Assembly (NCBI GenBank): GCA_002633005.1
Contig: NMRA01000318.1
Location: 211,594 to 275,593, forward strand
DNA from: Phoronis australis
Taxonomy: Eukaryota > Animalia > Phoronida
Length of the DNA: 64,000 bases
Reading direction: 5' to 3'
Positions 30,865-64,000 of this stretch are shown here, in pieces. Positions within the stretch are counted from its first letter, which is position 1. Each line of letters starts with the position of its first letter. The translations under genes were made by a program, and so were the position numbers. Below the pieces are notes generated by a model, which saw only the letters and a list, made by a program, of their open reading frames with translations, did no database searches and was not told where the DNA came from.

Positions 30865-31192
30865 TTAAAGCTGCATTTCATCCCTTGTTAAGGTGACTAA
30901 AAAAAGTTAAATTAGGCATTTTGTTCTCACAGAATCGATCTCATGATGTCCCTTGCCGTGACAGGATTTCATTTCTGTTACCAATTCAATTCCCAGGATA
31001 TGCAGACACGCAACATTTACAATTCGCAATTTCAGGGTTCATTTGCCCAACCCCAATCTTGAGTCGCTGATGGTAAACGGAGATTGGTTAATATCACGAT
31101 AAGGACTGTTGTGAAACCGGTTTTATGAGAGTATAAAGCCTAATTCGATTTTTGTTTTTTAACCATCTAAGCAAGGCAGAATACAGCTTCAA
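30865..31192. mobile_element. Fold-back MITE with about 120-bp diverged TIRs, TTAA-type (Kolobok-like) ends
   Basis: ttaaagctgcatt...aattaggc...ctca...atctca...gtga...gttacca mirrored by tggtaa...tcacgataagg...tgagag...gcctaatt...aatacagcttcaa. Confidence 0.7.
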
Positions 31193-49514: not shown

Positions 49515-52500
49515 CTGTAAAAAGAGGCAATAAAACAACAGTGAGCGAGTTTTGATACTCTCAGCTGGCAACAAATATGAACTGAACAGGTGTGAGTTTG
49601 TAGCTCTTATACGGCTGGGCTGCGAACTCAGTTACACACAGAGTCTGTACAGATGGAAAAATATACAATGGCAATGCCAGGGTACTGCTGAGGACCCGTG
49701 TGTGCCTGTGAACCCATAGCTAAAGCCACAGATTTGGAATTTTCAGCATGTGGCGACATGCAAAACAATTGACTAAAACCGAGGAGCAAAATTTCAAAAT
49801 GGCATACGAGAGAAACTTTCATCCTTAACAAAATGGTTGACGTTGACAAGTATTCAAAATTTAATATTGATTATTTAAATGAAAAATACTAAAATGGACA
49901 AAAGACCAATAAAACGGCACCAAATTTAACAAGTATACATATGCCACAAATAGCCGACCTGATCTTTGTAAAGTTTGAAAGCCATGCTCATATATGTGAG
50001 ACACTTGAGCAAAATGTTTGAGAAAATATGCATTATTCCTTCCCAATATAGGAGCATGACCTAAAAACATAACCAAAAAATTTTGAAACCAAACATTTTT
50101 TTTTCATAATCACACAATGACATATGATTGGCCCTACCTTTCACCCAAAACACGTTTAGTAACATTTTTAACATTTATTTTTTACAAATCTTTGTAAAGA
50201 GAGATTTTTTCAATCATTCATTTCACATTGAATGTTTGGTATGCACAACAACCAGTTCAGTCAAACAACAAATTAAAGTACTTCAGAGCTTACTTTGAAT
50301 CCCAAAATAAGACCTACTTGGCTAAGAACCTTGTTCTTATCTTAGACCAGATAAATTAACACTTCCACTTCAAGAGAACCTATCAGCCTCAAGACTTCAG
50401 TACACAAATGTGGCAGGGTTTTTTTACTTCCAAACTTCTGTTTTCTGTTTATGATAACCTACTATTGCCTGTCTCTATCATAGATCAAACGATCTTTTCA
50501 TCTGCCAAAGCACTGAGTGAGATGAATTATCCTCACTAGTTCAGGCAACGATATATATAGCCTCAAAGGTCAAGATGTTACACAAACTTTTTATGATATT
50601 TCTCGCATTAAATGCACTCACTGCTATCGTATGAAATCCAGCAAAACAAGAGAATAATAATACAAAGCAAAAGAAAATGTAATCAAGAACTAAAAACCTT
50701 CCAGCAAAACCCATAGCTATAAACAAGGGGGGAAATGAATAACATCATTGGAAAAGACAAAATTCCAACAGGTGTAGAGCACAATAATTCTTCTTGGCTG
50801 ACTTTTCTGACTTGTTGAGTGTGTCTATTTTAAAACAATACATTAAATCAGAGTTGCAGAATGGATTAGACAAGAAAAATTACGCCAAAGTTATCAAACA
50901 TGAAACATGCGACTCTGACAAAACAAAACAAAATGAAACAAACAAAAAAAATGACTCAGTCTAAAAAAAGTAAGGCAGACGTTTCTCATTACTCAGGTTC
51001 ACCATTTGACCAATCAACATATTCTCCTTCCGAAGTTGTTATTACACTGAAGAGGGCATTCTTGCTAAATTTCAAGAGGTGTAAAATTTAACAAAAAATG
51101 CCACCACTATAAATTTTTAGAATGACTGAAATATGCTTATAAGATGGCTCATTCTAAACCAATTATTCAAAAAACCCTGGCTGGCAATATCACTGCGTCT
51201 TTTAAGTCTACACATAAAATGTCCATTGTACACGTGTTATGCATAAACTGAAATCCCAGCTGCCCAAGGGTACATCAATATTCAACAAACAATTCATCTG
51301 TATTTAACAAATACTGCACGTGATATTATATAACACAAAACAATGTTTGTTTACACATATAATCTTCTTGCACTCAATGCCCTCACATACTAGTCACTAA
51401 AAACAAACGCAGCTCAAAGCTGGCATGTCTATACACATATTTCAGATCTGATTGAAAATCAGCACCAGGTGGAGGCACAATAGAGAGAGATACATTTTGC
51501 AATTTCCAAAGTTGACAATGATTATTATTAAATGCTCACAGAACACAAAATTAAAACATGTTACAGTGAAAGAAAACTCAACAGACTGCAACAAACAAAA
51601 CAAATATCTAAAATGCAGATGTCAAATCAAAGTTTTGATATCCAAATGAGACTTACATAATGTTGACGTTCTACCAAAGAGGAATATTTTCATATGTGTG
51701 GGGTGGAAACAAATAACAATCAAAGGTTCAAAATAGCAGATGACAGGTGGGAAAAATATTTCCCAACTGCATTTATCAGATTTCAGTTCACACTTCAAAA
51801 GCTCTCAGTTGTGTCATAAATTGGTTTATAGCAAAGTAGATATAATCACACATAAAGTGTCAAATTCATTGTTAAGGAATTTACGAGCATTTCTAAACAG
51901 TAACTCATGTAGAAATTGAAGCCTACTACAACCACAAATGACACTGGGGAGAGTCTCAAAGTAACTGCTGAATACTTGAGTCATGCATTTCACAGAATAT
52001 GGCACCCACATTTTCCAGATCACCTTTGTATCTGTTTAAACGGAACTACAGTATGAAAGAATACACAGTGTTTTCATTCAGAGAATGAAAAAAAGGTGCT
52101 TAATATTGTAAATGTAAGGGCACAATTCTAGACAAGTCAATTTTCAGACTTTTCAATTGTTGGCCAAAAAAAAAACATAACGGAGGTTTCCAGTAATTTG
52201 GCAACAGCCATTCTTTCAAACAAAACAAACTGAGCATGTGACTGCCATGTCTGTTGCATTTTTTGTGGAAACTCGCTAGTGTGTGTCTCCACAAGTTCAT
52301 CATAAGCAATTTTGTACAGAACTATGCAACAGGTAACACTACAGTGTCCTTAAGTGGAATAGATAACATTCACTGCTAGGTAATTTATGTTCAAACACAT
52401 ATTGATGAAAGTTCATCTTTGACAGTGGTGCCCTCTTACAGAAAAATAATGATCAACTCAAAGCCATGATTAGCCACCATTATTGATTTGAAAATGAAAA

Positions 52501-53709
52501 GCTACAGCAGAAGTACCATGGTGTGAAATACATCCCTGTACACAACAAGCAAAGTTGCAATTTAAAGTCAAACAATGCAATGCTTAACCATAAAATGTAA
52601 TGCTATCTTATTAAGGATTCACGGTAGATAAGCTGACCATTTTTCCATGCTCCTCTTTAAAATGTGTAAAATTTCAATCTACAGCATTTCAAAATTGACT
52701 CAAAACTTGAACAAAAGAAAATAATTATTTTTAGTCATTCATTTTTTATGAAAAAGCACATTTTTCTCATTCCGTTTCTCAAAAAGTCCCATAGTCTAGT
52801 TCTGAAGTCACGAACAAACAAATACAAGAATAAAGTCATCACAGAGCTCACACTTTTTGTAATTTGCTTTTGAAATTTGGCAGATATGATATTTTACTTT
52901 TGCATCAAAAAATAAAGCCATCCTTAGATTTAAAGTTCACCTGGATTTTATTTCAAATTAGGTGATTTTTTAAAAATTAATTAACACACGGCTGAGAACT
53001 AAACTCCAACGCATTGCCGCCACCGTGAAATTTCATGAACTGAGATAAAACATGACACGCAGTCCTAACATGCTACTTTTGGTCAACTTTCACTCTGAAA
53101 ATCTATCAATGTAGTATTCAAGTTTTACTGCACCTAACACAAACATGCCAGAGAGTAAGTTACATTGTACAGTAACTAACTTAACTGTTTGTGTGCAACT
53201 AAGCCTTGAACTTTTTTCTTAAAATTTCGAAATATCCTTGAGCCAAAATCAAAATGGCTACCGGACCTTAGTGCCCATTCTACCAAAGGTTCTCTGTGTA
53301 GTGGTGTCATAATTGACCAATTCGTGGTTGGTTTAAGCTTATGGGCTATAGCCAGTTCTTTCCAGTCAGCAACCATCCAAGTGCACTGAACAGTGGTATA
53401 GAATAAAAGACCTCCAGAGGTGGGATCAAACTGACAACTTTGCCGTATTCAAACCAATTTCACTTTTCACAAAAAATGTAAGAGAAGAATCAAAGGCTAA
53501 GATGATAAGAAAATTCAAAAAATGTCAAAATCCAAAATTCGGAGTAAGTAACCTCCTCTAACATGAGAATATAATAATTTTGCCAATAGACAAGAAAACA
53601 AGGATGGTTAAAGCATACAATACATTGCCAACTGAAAATTAGTACTCTATGTATGATTAAAAAATCTGAAATGTAATTTAAAACACAAAACACAAGCAGA
53701 ACTGCCTAC

Positions 53710-53810: not shown

Positions 53811-55021
53811 CTGAAAGCACGACACAATAATACATTCAATTGGCCTCACAAAAAGATGTGACAATATTTCAATTGTTCTTGCCACCAATTCCAACATCTC
53901 GATTCAAAGCTCTTTAGCGGAGGTAGAAAAACACATGGGACAATTGATCTAGTTTTCAAAAGGTAGGACGGCTAACACTCTTCAGAGCATAAATAGGATA
54001 TTGCCTTTACACAACTTTTCAATTTTTTATGTCTCCACTGCAATTCATTATACAACACTAAGACTTTATTGGCATTAAAATGAGGAACGGCGAACCTTAA
54101 TGTACCACAGTGATGAATACAGTGGCGGAGTACAACTGAAGGGCAAGCGGTATATAGACAAGCAGCAATGCGGGTAAATACCACAGGCTCAGAGGGGTGC
54201 TCTGGTATATTCCAGGGCTATGCCAGGCAAAAACTGACTATAGTACAAATGATCCCATTTCCAGCCATTGTAGAAGCATGTGAACCGTTATGGATTTAAC
54301 TACCATAGAATCATGAATGCACACAATGGATAATGAAGTATCACCAACTGAAAGCATAGACACGTCACGAATGAGTCAGCGATTATATCTACCATGGTTC
54401 GTCGCTTACTTCGCACAAAAAATCGTCACATTTCTATTTTCAAAAGCTAATCACTTTGCAGCAAAAAATCATAAGAATTATTAACAGTTGTTTCACAACA
54501 GCAGCAGTAGTAACAGAAAAACATGTGTTAAAGATTTTTATTTTTGTTAAAAATGAAAAGGAATAAAATTTCACTTCTCTGGCAGGATGACATGCTAAAT
54601 AGGTAAAAAATACTGTAAAAACTCTTTTAAAAATGGCAATGCTGAATATCACAGATACCACTTTAACAGCTAGAAAACATTAGCGTTCTAAAGGAGTTGG
54701 TGTGTATCACCTGAAAAGTCAAACTAGACCTTGTAAGTTAAAACCAAAATTCATGAACAGTTTATGAATTGTTGTACAGTGAGTTAAAATTGGGGTGTGA
54801 TATTCCATTCAGCTTTTCTTGACTGGCTCTTTGAAAACTTGTGGGTAAGTCACACACAAATTCTTTAATCTACCTCCAAAATAGAGAGCTGGATTTTGGA
54901 CAGTACTGTAAGACCGACTGCATTTACTGTTTAACTAACACAAGAATACTTAGAATATTGATCATCAATATTTTCATCTTGTTCTGGCATCTGTAAGTTT
55001 CTCTTACGCATCCCAACTTAC

Positions 55022-55096
55022 GTGAGTTTATTATCCAGTTTCGCAGTGGTCTCATTGTCCTCTTTGATCCGATCCATTGTCTCTTTTTTCTTATCC
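55022..55096 (-). CDS. Coiled-coil protein, exon 8
   Basis: caattag / gtaagt, phase 2-2, 75 nt. DKKKETMDRIKEDNETTAKLDNKL(T). Confidence 0.82.
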
Positions 55097-55753
55097 CTAA
55101 TTGCCAAAACAAAACAACAATGAAGCGTACACATGACCAAACCAACATTAACATTGCACTTTCTACAAGAAGCTATCATATGGACTGCCAAAAGCTCATT
55201 GTCATAAGTGACATGGTAAATATTGTCAAAATCATTACTTCTGATTATGCAATCGCTTGGGATAAGTGAAACAAATTTGTAAAACTTCAAATATCTCGAC
55301 TGCAGCAACACTATCGCATCTATTAATCAAAGAGGAGGTATCATGAAAGAACGGAGGTCCCCTGGAGTGGCAACCAAGTCTCCCATAACCTATATCTTTA
55401 TTTCAGCAGACAACATGAAACTAATTATGTTTTCTGACCACTTGAGTCTGTCAAGTAGCGGTAATGGATGAACAGGATAGAATTGGCTGCAATTGTTAAC
55501 GTGTCATTGATTGTGGGACCAACCCAGGCTAATTTATACTGTTTAAGGTATTTAGCAGTAATTTTGTCATTTTATCAGGGATGGTTTTTAGTGAGAGAGC
55601 ACTAGACAGGGGATCATTGATTCGACTTCCTGGGAGAGAAAACTTTGAATGGGTAATAGAAAAAATATCATGCAAAAGATTTTAGAGAATTGTGGAAAAC
55701 TAGCAAGGAAAGGATGACAAATGTGAAACCCTGGACCATTTAAACTTACCTAC

Positions 55754-55762
55754 CTTTCCATT
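55754..55762 (-). CDS. Candidate 9-nt microexon of the coiled-coil gene (adds M-E-R)
   Basis: ctttcttctctgtctatttag|AATGGAAAG|gtaggtaagt. Phase 2-2, in frame between exon 7 and exon 8. Confidence 0.5.
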
Positions 55763-57967
55763 CTAAATAGACAGAGAAGAAAGTTTTAATAGCAGTTACA
55801 ACTGACTCATGTTTAATAACACACGAATATCCGCATGCATCAAAATATCTTAAATCGGCCAAAAAATTGGTATTGGGGGGAATAATTTTAATTATGAATA
55901 TTTTGAATACACAAAAACAACAGGTGGAATATGAAATCAATCAATGTAAGAACAGTAAATTTAAATACTGAATGCCTCAATTTGTAAATGACAACCGATT
56001 ACCCTCCACTTATCAAATGGCAATGATCAATTCAATGTGTCAGTCAACACATGAAACTGTGCTGACACCTTTTGACAAAAAAGACAAATACGAACAGCAT
56101 GGCCAAAGCTTGGTAGAAAGCAACCACTTAACACATTCTGTAAATTGTGTGAAGAACTGAATTATGGGATGCATGTCACCGTTGGTCAAATCATAACAAA
56201 GATAAAGAATGACACGTCAGCAAATAGCTAATCTATGTCTTCCAATCTCTGCCAGAATGCAGATGCATTTGTGGCTGGTTTCCCACACATGAATGAATCC
56301 AGGCAAGATGTCTAGTAGTATATAGTAGGTCAAAGTCCAGCATTGGATTTCAGGCCAAAGTGTTCACCAAATTCAGCCGCAGAATTTTAATGTTAAACTT
56401 GCAGTGTATATATTGGGGTCTGGCTAAAGGATCCGCTGTCTGACACAGACAATGAATTTTCCGAAATTAGGCCTAAGGTATTTCTGGATTTGCTCTTGTG
56501 TTGCAGAATGTGCTTAGAAAGCCTTCACTTGTTCATGAATTTCCGATCTTGCAGCATGCAGTGTTTTTGGTCTGAAGACAGGATTTGAATTTTGGTCCTA
56601 AGCTTTTACCAAACCAGGGACTTTCCCAAAAGACGGACTCATGGTAGGGATGGTAAAACAACAGAGGGTGGACATCGTCTAACCAGGTGGGTAGTGAGAA
56701 AGGCCGGTGAACGTGTAAGCGGTCCCAGCATAGCATTGGTCTGGATTTTGTTATTGTGTGGAAGAGAACCCGAGGGGTGTTTATTAGAGTCCGGTAGAGC
56801 TGTTTGCAAGCGTGACCACTGACTCAATCTCCACCATGTTTCTACACCAACACCACTTTAATTCACGCACATCACATTTTTGATGCCCATCATTTGTATT
56901 ACTTCAGGACACCAAGACCTCATACACACTATTTTCTTTGCAGCTGCTCCACAGTTCCAAGTACTGCAAACTGACCAAGGAAAATACGAACCAATAAAGA
57001 AGACACAATAACACTCAAACTAAGGTTGAAAAAGCATTGTCGGTTCTGGTCTGTGGTTGCTTTGAACACTGCATGACGAGGTAATGAAATATTTTCTTGT
57101 AGTTGTTCACTTTTTAGTATAATTTGTTAGAATGTCCTATATAAAACAAGTCTCTTTAAAGAAAACACTACGATAATTATTATAATTTTAAATCTACATT
57201 TCTTACTTTTTCAGAAATAAAAAAATCACTCAATATTGGTAATGGTGGTATGTTTTTTTTCTCAGCTCAAAACATCTTCAGCGATTCCACTGCCACTGCC
57301 AGGTAGTAGAGGATGGGATGTGACCTGGTTCATTTTAAACAGAGGTTAAGGTCTCATAGGAGGTGATTGTGGCCGACTTGACAAGACTCTTCATTTAAAA
57401 ACTATAGCTTGGATGCATGTGCCTTAATTGAAAAGAAATCAAGAACTTTGCCAAACTTGACGCTTGTGGGTTTTCTTTTTCCTTTTCCCTGATGCAGTGA
57501 AACAAAGGTTTCAAATTGTGTTTGGGTGCCGACCAGAACCAAATATGCTTTCTTGGCCTAATCAAGTCGATTTTACGGTGTTACTTTCGTCATTTAAGAA
57601 TGACATATTCCTTCCTCAAGAAAATGATGAGTTAAAATCCGTAAACCATTCAGAAAGCAAGTCAAACGAAAGCGAATTCACTTTAAGAAAAAAGAACTAT
57701 TAGATTTTTCAATTTGCTAACATTGCTTATACAGCGCAGTTCACAAATATTGTGCTGAGCGGGCAATGACAGACGTCAATAGGATGGCTCTGGATGGTTG
57801 ATGTTTAAACTAAATCTGCTTTGCTGGGCTGTTAGCTACCTCTTACCATCCTTAAGACGTCTGGACGCCACCTCAACAAAATGTTCGAGAGTTGTAAAAT
57901 GTAAAGAAGAAAGGCAAAGTGTAAGAAAGAAAAACCCATGCCAGTCATGTTCAATAACGTGACTTAC

Positions 57968-58065
57968 CTCTTAAATTCAAATTTTTCAACCCGGCCTTTT
58001 TGAGCCTCCATATTTAAAGAAATAGCCATTTCAGCCAACTCTTGTTTCAACTTAAACTGTTCTTG
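57968..58065 (-). CDS. Coiled-coil protein, exon 7B (mutually exclusive with 7A)
   Basis: cttgcag / gtaagt, 98 nt, phase 0-2. QEQFKLKQELAEMAISLNMEAQKGRVEKFEFK(R). Confidence 0.85.
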
Positions 58066-59021
58066 CTGCAAGTGGCAAAACTAAGAAATTAGATCACTAG
58101 AAAATGTACCGTCTAACTGACAAACAATTACCAGGCAACTGTTCAGAATCAACATCCCAGTTCAAGCAACAATACTTCTCAGTTAAAATTAAACAAAGAA
58201 ATATTGGCAATTTTTTAGAAGTACCATATGCACTTGGCATTCTATTACAAAACTCCTTGGTTTTGATGATTTCTGTTCTACTAAGCAAGAACTTAAGATA
58301 AGAGTCTTTGATTAAGTGTTCAATTTATGCGGATGAGTACATATAACATACTTGCACTCGACGACCCGCAAAGCAAACTACAAACTTGAGTTGAGATCAT
58401 AAGATACCTTCATTACCAAGGATTAAACTTCTTTTGCAAGTGTTGACAGAAGTCTAATAAAACTTCCAAAAATGATTTTGTACACCAAACTGTTTTTGTA
58501 TTCTATTAGCTACAAAAGCATGTATGGGATTTTCTTTTAAGGCCTAGCATGAGAACTCGACTGTCAAAAATCATGCTTTTCTGGAAAAAAGCACCGCACA
58601 TTCCATTTAAAAATCATGGTTGAGGAAATTACGGCAAGCTGCATAAAAATCAAAAGAGTATTTAGTAAAAACACATGCAGTCACATGATTACAAACATCT
58701 GGTAACTATTCTTGTACACATAATAAGATTTATTTGTGATTATCAGCAATTTTAAAGATTTATGGTTTTATGTGCCTACTATTAATACTTAAAAATTATG
58801 AAGAAAATTTGGCTCTTGGTAACAAACAAATCCTACTATCTTAAATGTTGAAGTCAACAAATGAAAAGTTGTAAACCATCATATAAGAACACAAAATCAA
58901 AAAAACGTATTTTAAGTTCATTCTTAAGTAGAAGAAATTAAATTGCAATTAGGCTTTGCATGTTGCCAAACAAGGATGTCAACTGAACAGTTATCTGTCA
59001 TAACAATTCACTCTGTCTTAC

Positions 59022-59119
59022 GTAAGAGATTCCAGTTTTAACACGCGCCCTTTCTGTGCTTCCATGTTGAGACTGATTGCCATTTCTGCAAGATCTTGTT
59101 TGAGTTTGAACTGTTCAGC
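59022..59119 (-). CDS. Coiled-coil protein, exon 7A (mutually exclusive with 7B)
   Basis: ttttcactgtag / gtaaga, 98 nt, phase 0-2. AEQFKLKQDLAEMAISLNMEAQKGRVLKLESL(T). Confidence 0.85.
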
Positions 59120-59161
59120 CTACAGTGAAAAGTGTTTCATCATGCGACATGCAAATACACG

Positions 59162-59312
59162 CAGAGGCGGATCCAGGATTTTTATAAAGGGGGTTCAAGA
59201 GTTTTTTAAAAAGGGATCCAAGGGAACAATTTGAAAATTCTAGATTTGATATCACTAAAATCAAGGGGAAAAGAGGGGTATGGACCCCTTGACCCCCCTG
59301 GATCTGCCAATG
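59162..59312. mobile_element. hAT5-like MITE, same terminal family as 26845-27083
   Basis: cagaggcggatccagg ... cctggatctgccaatg, with flanks acacg / gcacg. Confidence 0.8.
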
Positions 59313-60430
59313 GCACGTGACTGTATGCATTAAACATCATGGCAGAATATCTAATGAGTACAAAGTATATGAATTTTTGTTTGAGTTGAATGTTTATATT
59401 TGCAAAGTATTGATCAATGATTACATCCAAAATTGTCAAGTTTTTAGGAAGTTGTGTCAATTGAAACAATGTTAAATCAGATCAAAAGGTACTCCATTGT
59501 CAAGTGACCATTCTTCACCTATTCAGCACACAATATACTGGCATTTCATTTTGTCAAATTGCTCAACAAAATAAACATTAAGAAATTTCACACTTGTTAT
59601 TAGAAGCATTATCTGTACAGAACAACTGTTGCTAACATCATCTGGTGAAAATTTTGAGTTCATATACCAAGGAAATCAGCCACTGAAAAATGATTATTAC
59701 ATTATTAATAGTGTTTTAACCAAAAACTTAAGAATTACCATGATAACATAGTTTCAACAAAACTGTAAAAATGATTGATTAACATTAAGATTGGGATAAT
59801 GCCTAAAGATTAAAATCTTGAATATGCACAGGTGGTTTTTCCAAGGCAGAATTGCCAACTCGAATCAAATAGTATGTCGTGTTTTCGCGGTACGGTCTCC
59901 AAATTCCCGCATGAAATTATGAGCATCCAATGCAATACTATTTCTCTTTACATAGAATGTATATCAGAAAAAGCTAAGGCTATTCAACCACAGCTAAACA
60001 GTATTAAACATGGCTCAGAACTTTTCACTGTTACCAAATTTGAATAAATGTACACAGAACACAGATATACAATCACCGGTAAAACCTCACCAACTTCCAA
60101 AACAAGAAATACTACAATCCCTCCTTCTTCATTTTTCAGTAGTTTGTAACATTGCATTGAGTACAGATAAAAGTGTTCGTCGTTGTCTCCTTTGATGATG
60201 GTAAAAACATAATTAATTTTTCTCATTACCGATTGCAGTGAGTGCCTGCAATGTTTCAAAGCAAAATCTTCATCGTAGCTATGGTACGAATCATGGGCAT
60301 GGTAAAGTAATTTTTTAGTTTATTTATCAATTGTGAATAGATGACATAATTAACATTTCACTTGTCCGCCATATTGCAATCTAAATTGGTGAGCTTTTAT
60401 CGCGTTCAAAATTTCCTTTCATTCACGTAC

Positions 60431-60539
60431 CTCCTTCTGCCTCATTTTCATTTCAAAATCTTCGGAGAGACGCATGATCTCAATGCGTTTCAAGTCAATC
60501 AAACTCTGCTTGCTCCTGTACTGACGTGCAAGATCGGAC
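60431..60539 (-). CDS. Coiled-coil protein, exon 6
   Basis: tttcgtcag / gtacgt, phase 2-0, 109 nt. SDLARQYRSKQSLIDLKRIEIMRLSEDFEMKMRQKE. Confidence 0.87.
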
Positions 60540-60914
60540 CTGACGAAATGTTGCAAACAATTACGTTCAGATGTTAGATCAACTCACAAAGAGCACAAAG
60601 AACCCATCTTAATTATACAATTTGCACGACTTTCCTACAGGAAATGACTTGCAAATAAAAAGTACAGCTGGCTTTTGGAGAAACAGATGCAGACTCGCTT
60701 GCAGTGTCAGCTGATTCACATACAAGATAAGTTAATAAGTTGAATATGCCATTCATATCAAAAAGATTTTCTATCAAAAAGTAGACTAAATCAAATGAAC
60801 TATATTTTTGAGTCATACATTTTGAGTTTGATTCTATAAGAGACACTGCTATATTACTGGTTCTCGTGGATCCAAGAACACAGAGTAGAAGGTGATACAG
60901 TAAATTTAACTTAC

Positions 60915-63694: not shown

Positions 63695-63843
63695 TTCAAA
63701 AATGTGGCATATTCGCGGCTTGCATTAGTCTTCTCTTCTTCATTATCAGAGGGGTTCTCCAGAGTACTTCCTGGTCGGCGAATCACAGCATAGCGACTTT
63801 TCGTAAGGTTGGGCCGGGCAAACGGAAGATCAGTGAGCACCAT
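63695..63843 (-). CDS. Coiled-coil protein, first visible coding exon (uncharacterised charged alpha-helical protein, about 558 aa)
   Basis: Acceptor tctttctccag at 63850, AAAATGG start context, MVLTDLPFARPNLTKSRYAVIRRPGSTLENPSDNEEEKTNASREYATFL(K), donor gtgagc in phase 2. All 14 exons join in frame (1677 nt). An upstream (UTR or coding) exon must lie outside the window. Confidence 0.8.
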
Positions 63844-64000
63844 TTTGTACTGGAGAAAGAAAATTACGATGTAAAGCAAAATGTAAGTTTACTACAAAGG
63901 TAATATGTTTCAAGCAACACTGCAGATTACAATTAACAATTAATTTTGAAAATTTCTTCTGGGGCCGAAAAACATGAGCAAAGGATATAGCACATGTGAA

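Follow-up and report, generated by a model that had tools for sequence, protein, structure and literature searches.

Tandemly duplicated exons that substitute for one another form a recognised class, in which duplication has recurred independently within one gene family, for example in tropomyosins and ion channels (in the accessible part of PMC9741552), a recurrence also described in the accessible part of PMC6071210; PMC11802352 and PMC8042237 have, in the sections available, little bearing on the case treated here. In human ATE1, exons 7a and 7b are subject to a competing RNA structure formed by the elements R1, R3 and R4, in which pairing between the copies, ahead of the second copy, favours the first (PMC7797038, available sections). 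Decoy exons, in turn, are associated with intron retention, as described for intron 4 of SF3B1 and for OGT in the accessible part of PMC6097662.

The exon pair that we compare with these systems lies in a 64,000-nucleotide stretch of the Phoronis australis genome (contig NMRA01000318.1, positions 211,594 to 275,593; hereafter the window, in whose coordinates all positions are given), within what an earlier note, made from the sequence alone, had described as an uncharacterised coiled-coil gene with mutually exclusive exons. The gene is read on the minus strand from an ATG at 63843, and its coding exons 1 to 4 (63843-63695, 62894-62708, 62022-61914 and 61759-61662, within the segment 61662..63850) were delineated by RNA junctions and translation; loose read ends were found at 63851, and a further 5' exon lies outside the window. 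Exon 5 (60994-60915, 80 nt) and exon 6 (60539-60431, 109 nt), both placed by RNA junctions, are single here. Exon 7 is present in two copies, A (59119-59022) and B (58065-57968), followed by exon 8 (55096-55022, 75 nt; junctions 59022>55096 and 55022>53810) and exons 9 to 13 (53810-53710, 49514-49387, 47927-47772, 46579-46352 and 40651-40538, with junctions down to 46579), all on the minus strand. Coding exons 1 to 12 are backed by RNA junctions and exon 13 by its profile only (66.8 bits); the profile search did not locate the last coding exon in the window, and a candidate for it at 30985 was rejected, as it has no acceptor. A possible in-frame microexon of 9 nt (55762-55754, minus strand), with AG/GT flanks and two overlapping donors, is unsupported, having no listed RNA junction and no matching insertion in 88 aligned homologs. 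Homologs carry small optional inserts elsewhere: in bivalves, inserts of 7 and 4 residues precede exon 3, and in Lineus one of 10 residues follows exon 1. Just downstream of exon 12 (46290-46210, minus strand) there is a near-identical local copy of its 3' end, donor site included. The minus strand of the window also holds a TGF-beta family gene (12879-11743; PF00019, E 1.5e-11), to which a stretch resembling a signal peptide and prodomain exon (25687-25340) probably belongs.

Copies A and B are each 98 nt long, run from phase 0 to phase 2, and are preceded by AG and followed by GT (B with the donor AG/GTAAGT), exactly as the earlier note had placed and described them. They are identical at 65 of 98 nt and specify the same residue in 26 of 32 codons, and within the first 26 residues they differ at positions 1 and 9 only, in agreement with the two differences claimed for that stretch. 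The differing patch at their ends, which had been given as seven residues (LKLESLT versus EKFEFKR), is real, with the corrections that K28 and E30 are shared by both copies and that the seventh residue belongs to a split codon. The two are homologous exons of similar length with the same frame and splice pattern, as expected of validated pairs in the available part of PMC5740500. When the window was searched with a family profile of exon 7, B scored 71.0 bits and A 63.6 bits, with the next best match at 4.5 bits, and of the other 12 exon profiles that detected their own exon not one gave a second match above 11 bits; the A/B match is not a product of chance. The introns flanking the two copies yielded short local alignments only (scores 26 and 24), in line with the claim that they share no obvious similarity.

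With either A or B alone the reading frame stays open through the modelled exons (the modelled frame used a guessed last exon, 39853-39800). A stop is met at 282 residues when both are included and at 245 when neither is, so the incompatibility of frame that had been proposed holds. We rejected an incompatibility between U2 and U12 sites (as in JNK) as the basis of exclusion: when compared with the minor-type (U12) consensus, the donors around exon 7 (GTACGT, GTAAGA and GTAAGT) and the acceptors, all AG, include no minor-type site.

The codons of A and B point to an old duplication. In codons 2 to 26 the third positions differ in 16 of 25 cases, the first in 4 and the second in 1, and among codons for the same residue that have synonyms 16 of 24 differ, including 11 of 11 of those with at least three synonyms. 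Over all 32 codons pS is 0.94 and pN 0.19, and a Jukes-Cantor dS is not computable at such a pS. Since synonymous sites are saturated, the duplication should be old, and gene conversion would not explain the likeness of the two proteins. We also simulated neutral evolution with A as the ancestor and without indels; a copy that kept at least 26 of 32 residues, acquired no stop and preserved both splice dinucleotides was obtained in 2785, 116, 1 and 0 of 10,000 runs at 0.1, 0.2, 0.3 and 0.5 substitutions per site, respectively. The codon pattern, the family profile and the simulation agree in supporting long purifying selection on both copies with constraint at the protein level, as the earlier note had argued from the many differing third positions, and its suggested dN/dS comparison comes out the same way, with synonymous far above nonsynonymous divergence. 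B is also the more typical member: of 179 homologous segments, many of them isoforms or close kin and so not independent, 153 are closer to B, 4 to A and 22 tied. A and B have 26 residues in common, and the closest homologs match A at 23 and B at 24, a distribution that fits a duplication within the lineage of this genome, judging by residue counts. A tree of the 32-residue exon-7 segments did not group A with B, and single-exon trees gave no resolution.

Four RNA runs (X1 to X4), picked by their species label and given without tissue of origin, were used to ask which copy is spliced; about 18-19% of each raw run was read, and junctions were listed only at three or more reads per run. X1 and X2 express the gene, X3 barely does so (2 reads, one junction) and X4 contributed one contig over exons 11-12. 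Exon 6 was joined to A (60431>59119) by 16 and 8 reads in X1 and X2, respectively, and A to exon 8 (59022>55096), bridging B, by 15 and 6. The junction from exon 6 to B (60431>58065) is absent from those listed in both runs; B, whose two borders have no listed junction or loose end, is covered by unspliced reads only, and no listed junction joins A to B. The share of B is accordingly below 12% for a true count of zero and below 30% if two reads per run went unlisted. The earlier interpretation is thus supported in part, by the age of the duplication, the selection on both copies and the incompatible frames, but for these samples the junctions go against mutually exclusive splicing, as only A has listed junctions in X1 and X2; support for one copy alone is the very pattern that the earlier note had said would speak against it, here seen in partial reads of two runs. 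Compared with the junctions of validated pairs (PMC5740500, in its available part), joining of A to exon 8 across B was found, joining of exon 6 to B was not among the junctions listed in X1 and X2, and the double junction was likewise not listed and would shift the frame. In the present data, A and B behave like a tandem duplicated exon substitution but lack one junction of a validated pair.

The reads also revealed that the RNA derives from another haplotype, which diverges by about 1.3% in the intron: nearly all read differences listed at 54900-59200 are fixed in both X1 and X2, including one at 59030 that changes codon 30 of A from Glu to Asp.

The intron between A and exon 8 (59021-55097, minus strand, 3925 nt), which contains B, is frequently retained. 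Its mean sense depth over 25 bins at 55188-58787 is 10.0 in X1 and 12.5 in X2, compared with exon depths of about 28-29 in X1 and 9-26 in X2, and depth is close to zero in bins that lie entirely within other introns (0-0.45 across 49764-53327, for example). The junction between exons 8 and 9 is spanned in X2 by 23 reads whose loose parts have a median of 51 nt; at least half of them thus extend past the 75-nt exon 8, and just 6 reads join A; some molecules already spliced downstream probably still carry the intron with B. The retained intron, the predicted hairpin described below and the duplications of neighbouring exons in relatives had all been missed by the earlier note.

For the 956-nt intron that separates A from B, folding is predicted at -240 kcal/mol, compared with a shuffle mean of -200.7 (z -7.9, 0 of 20 shuffles as low); at 10 shuffles each, its antisense gave z -2.5, and z ranged from -0.25 to +3.5 in four other introns of the gene. 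After correction for composition it has the second lowest residual of 62 windows; the segment 16001-16956 folds more strongly for its composition (residual -43.6). The predicted hairpin, on the minus strand throughout, has an outer 5' arm at 58997-58962, starting 24 nt after the A donor, and an outer 3' arm at 58170-58132, ending 66 nt before the B acceptor; nested within these are middle arms (58938-58887 with 58321-58269) and inner arms (58841-58815 with 58420-58394), formed by the inverted repeats I1 and I2. Helix probabilities are 0.79-0.96 for the outer arms and 0.80-1.00 for the nested middle and inner arms, and every arm pair is more stable in sense than in antisense, the outer duplex reaching about -39.0 to -40.3 in sense and -30.9 in antisense. 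The long-range pairs include 17 G-U of 116. Complementarity of the arms scored 55 against a shuffle maximum of 40 (60 shuffles), and other intron segments were at shuffle level in 5 of 6 pairs.

Weaker helices (probability 0.4-0.7) would in addition cover the A donor and the B pyrimidine tract. The branch point of B presumably lies 24 nt before the exon, judging by the branch-point motif. Were the outer stem to form, the free path from donor to branch point would be about 67 nt, which exceeds the 50-nt steric limit given in the available part of PMC5740500, and in the linear intron of 956 nt exclusion through a short distance between donor and branch point does not apply. Upstream of A, 59646-59617 (minus strand) could serve as a second partner of the outer 5' arm (duplex -28.1) and would then loop A out, giving the layout of ATE1; this is a weak lead from duplex prediction, as the scan took in six arms and two unrelated places in about 8500 windows were as good or better. 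No homology was detected between the elements upstream of A and upstream of B, their score being equalled in 196 of 300 shuffles. Within the 64-kb window nothing else matches the A-B intron over more than 17 nt, and an Rfam search of 54900-60600 returned no match. About 45 nt upstream of the A acceptor there is also a short repeat with inverted ends (59308-59166), matched on both strands by many reads from elsewhere, which resembles a miniature inverted-repeat transposon.

With the Lingula protein as query we found 88 homologs (a search by exon 12 alone recovered the Lingula protein only). Named members come from cnidarians, rotifers, a flatworm, molluscs, annelids, nemerteans, a brachiopod, a bryozoan, hemichordates, echinoderms, amphioxus, a tunicate, lungfish and amphibians; arthropods, nematodes and amniotes are not represented among the named homologs, which does not by itself show that they lack the gene. 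From this taxonomic range alone we infer that the protein acts in cilia or flagella; its names in the source records, "myosin-11" and "trichohyalin-like", were assigned automatically, and we drew no function from them. The protein of the window groups with those of Lingula and Watersipora (support 0.94). A model of the Lingula protein (mean pLDDT 77) has three long helices, at 88-232, 238-396 and 408-553, and exon 7 would start at about residue 243, near the start of the second and not, as had been thought, in the middle of the coiled coil. Pfam gave no family for five homologs, PDB no sequence match, Foldseek no match at E 0.001 or better, and all ESM Atlas matches were below 0.9. A search for short forms returned two ENA fragments only, resembling single-exon gene calls, and in L002-L005 (10034-11524) we came upon a homolog with exons 2-13 fused and intronless, on contigs of 12-25 kb. 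Literature searches found no paper under six homolog accession or locus identifiers, none naming this gene among the listed papers on mutually exclusive exons or exon duplication (supplements aside), and, for mutually exclusive exon duplication in lophotrochozoans, work on human exons only.

Relatives were compared through the isoforms of 57 protein pairs and through 30 metagenome loci. In 15 bivalve and gastropod species, isoforms of equal length differ by a swap of precisely the exon-5 segment, and the isoforms of the nemertean Lineus swap the exon-6 segment, of which the Capitella model carries two in a row. At the genomic level, locus L012 has two tandem 80-nt copies of exon 5 and locus L028 two tandem 109-nt copies of exon 6, with proper splice sites. 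The single-exon trees gave no count of origins (once or several times) for the exon-5 or exon-6 pairs. The introns between the copies fold at z -0.6 in L012 and z -2.6 in L028, so a hairpin is not a rule of the family. Eleven of the loci carry exon 7 in the same 98-nt form, and it occurs once in each of the four that hold a later coding exon (L012, L018, L024 and L029, from more distant animals); none of the 57 protein pairs swaps it, so that nothing in these comparisons confirms B outside this genome. In three heterodont bivalves, Ruditapes, Dreissena and Mya (P0101-P0108, P0031/P0033), a homologous C-terminal segment is swapped, a further duplicated-exon event in the gene. In two other animals, recent partial duplicates stand beside the full exon 7 (L027, 2805-2866) and beside the full exon 3 (L013, 75-131), and local exon copying seems to be frequent in this gene, to judge from the compared sequences.

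Taken together, we slightly favour the explanation that B, one half of an old and intact exon-7 pair, is a mutually exclusive alternative for another tissue or stage, which is switched off in the RNA examined, probably by the predicted hairpin. The hairpin would draw the A donor toward the branch point and pyrimidine tract of B, and sites so drawn together would hinder joining of A to B, hide B and slow removal of the intron. At least a third of transcripts may then keep the intron and meet the stop right after A, and any double or skipped transcripts, being frameshifted, would be degraded, with decay as a backup and retention as a side outcome. If the hairpin were opened or A looped out, B would be used, changing six residues and the junction residue. 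We thus infer the use of B in another tissue or stage, the control by the hairpin, the decay of double and skipped products and a decoy effect. Against this reading, B has no listed junction in either expressing run, the predicted hairpin has no covariation support, one unrelated window folds more strongly, the outer stem alone would leave more than the steric limit between donor and branch point, with only weak helices to close that gap, and the intron between the exon-5 copies of L012 is unstructured.

A broader proposal, to which we give limited credence, is that one intron-wide hairpin constitutes a three-way switch between A, B and the held intron, with the paralog B doubling as a decoy that sets the output of full-length protein. 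The gene itself would be a hotspot in which molluscs, nemerteans and annelids, and the Phoronis lineage separately doubled exons 5, 6 and 7, retuning the same stretch of a helical protein that is likely ciliary or flagellar.

It is rather unlikely that B was long a working alternative that fell into disuse recently and is intact for lack of time, retention being a leftover inefficiency. This would account for B having no listed junction in X1 and X2 and for no exon-7 pair being confirmed in other animals; yet B is closer to the family than A and has kept a consensus donor and a plausible branch point. The haplotypes argue weakly in the same direction: among the differences listed, none that is fixed between reads and genome falls in 57961-58441, which takes in the outer 3' arm of the predicted hairpin, compared with 36 in the 2871 nt downstream. 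We rely on this absence only within 57968-58211, a well-covered stretch of 244 bases in which about 3 differences were to be expected.

Similarly unlikely is that B and the hairpin serve mainly as a decoy that holds the intron and lowers or delays full-length protein, coding use being minor or absent. This intron alone of the gene is retained, it is longer than 1 kb and contains an unused exon bearing splice sites, and exons of this kind are common in retained introns above 1 kb, where their splice sites are needed (PMC6097662, accessible part). However, a pure decoy would not keep its residues while third positions saturate, and the decoys described in that part of PMC6097662 are non-coding cassettes.

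The depth profile of the intron might instead reflect a second promoter near 58790, from which an unspliced leader would run through B into exon 8, encoding a C-terminal fragment or nothing, with B unused or rare. What suggests it is a dip to 0.18 (X1) and 1.77 (X2) at 58788-58931, from which depth climbs downstream, together with a depth of 9 at exon A in X2, less than intron depths of up to 26. The dip, however, is the most A+T-rich bin and lies within a hairpin arm, intron depth follows G+C (Spearman 0.49 and 0.45 over 26 bins), and the implied depth just past the A donor (5.2 and 3.9) means that reads leave A unspliced; we therefore prefer retention of the whole intron. Junction counts are moreover alike upstream (13-31 in X1, 8-22 in X2) and downstream (13-26 and 7-20), and we regard an inner promoter as improbable.

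Still less probable is that B is an alternative last coding exon, to which exon 6 would be joined and from which translation would read into a stop, giving a short protein. A TAA does follow B at once, and alternative C-termini occur in bivalve homologs, but no junction of exon 6 to B is listed and the consensus donor of B is in phase with exon 8. Reading through past A likewise meets a TAA right after the split codon, and an immediate stop after exon 7, which follows from the donor consensus, is found in 8 of 11 other loci, so neither the stop after B nor that after A is special. Finally, an assembly or haplotype artefact, which the earlier note had named as a threat to its reading, can be dismissed, as 33 of 98 nt differ in a codon-patterned way and RNA reads from the other haplotype cover B in place.

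If B, as we favour, is used elsewhere, the locus would be a compact case in which one RNA structure joins an either-or choice of exons to intron retention, two mechanisms that are treated apart in the available parts of the papers cited; if B proves to be unused, it would be a well-preserved snapshot of the loss of an alternative exon. In this protein, which is unstudied but widely conserved in animals, the pattern in the family marks residues ~180-280 as a region diversified in several lineages through the doubling of different adjacent exons, and one where protein partners probably bind.

Compared with the systems described above, A and B resemble other tandem duplicated exon substitutions (PMC9741552 and PMC5740500, in their accessible parts) in their equal length and phase, in a length that is not divisible by three and in conservative differences; they depart from them in that junctions are listed for one copy only, the gene is uncharacterised, and three consecutive exons are doubled in different lineages. 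As in ATE1, an intron element is predicted to pair ahead of the second copy, and the weaker partner upstream of A would mirror R1. In ATE1, however, R1 and R4 are conserved, alike, overlap splice sites and were tested by compensatory mutation (PMC7797038, available sections), whereas the stem between A and B is a prediction, takes up most of the intron and stops 66 nt before the acceptor, and its upstream partner is not clearly above chance. As in SF3B1 and OGT (accessible part of PMC6097662), a long intron with an unused exon is kept in a large share of transcripts while its neighbours are removed; unlike those non-coding decoys, B is a full coding paralog of the upstream exon under selection at the protein level. 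Closest of all are the exon-5 pairs of bivalves and gastropods and the exon-6 pairs of Lineus, Capitella and L028, which are equal-length, in-register alternatives for the same protein stretch of the same gene, although exon 5 and Lineus exon 6 have both forms annotated as isoforms, and their copies differ at 17-23 residues, compared with 6-7 for A and B. The A/B pair, in short, belongs to a known class and has an unusual anatomy.
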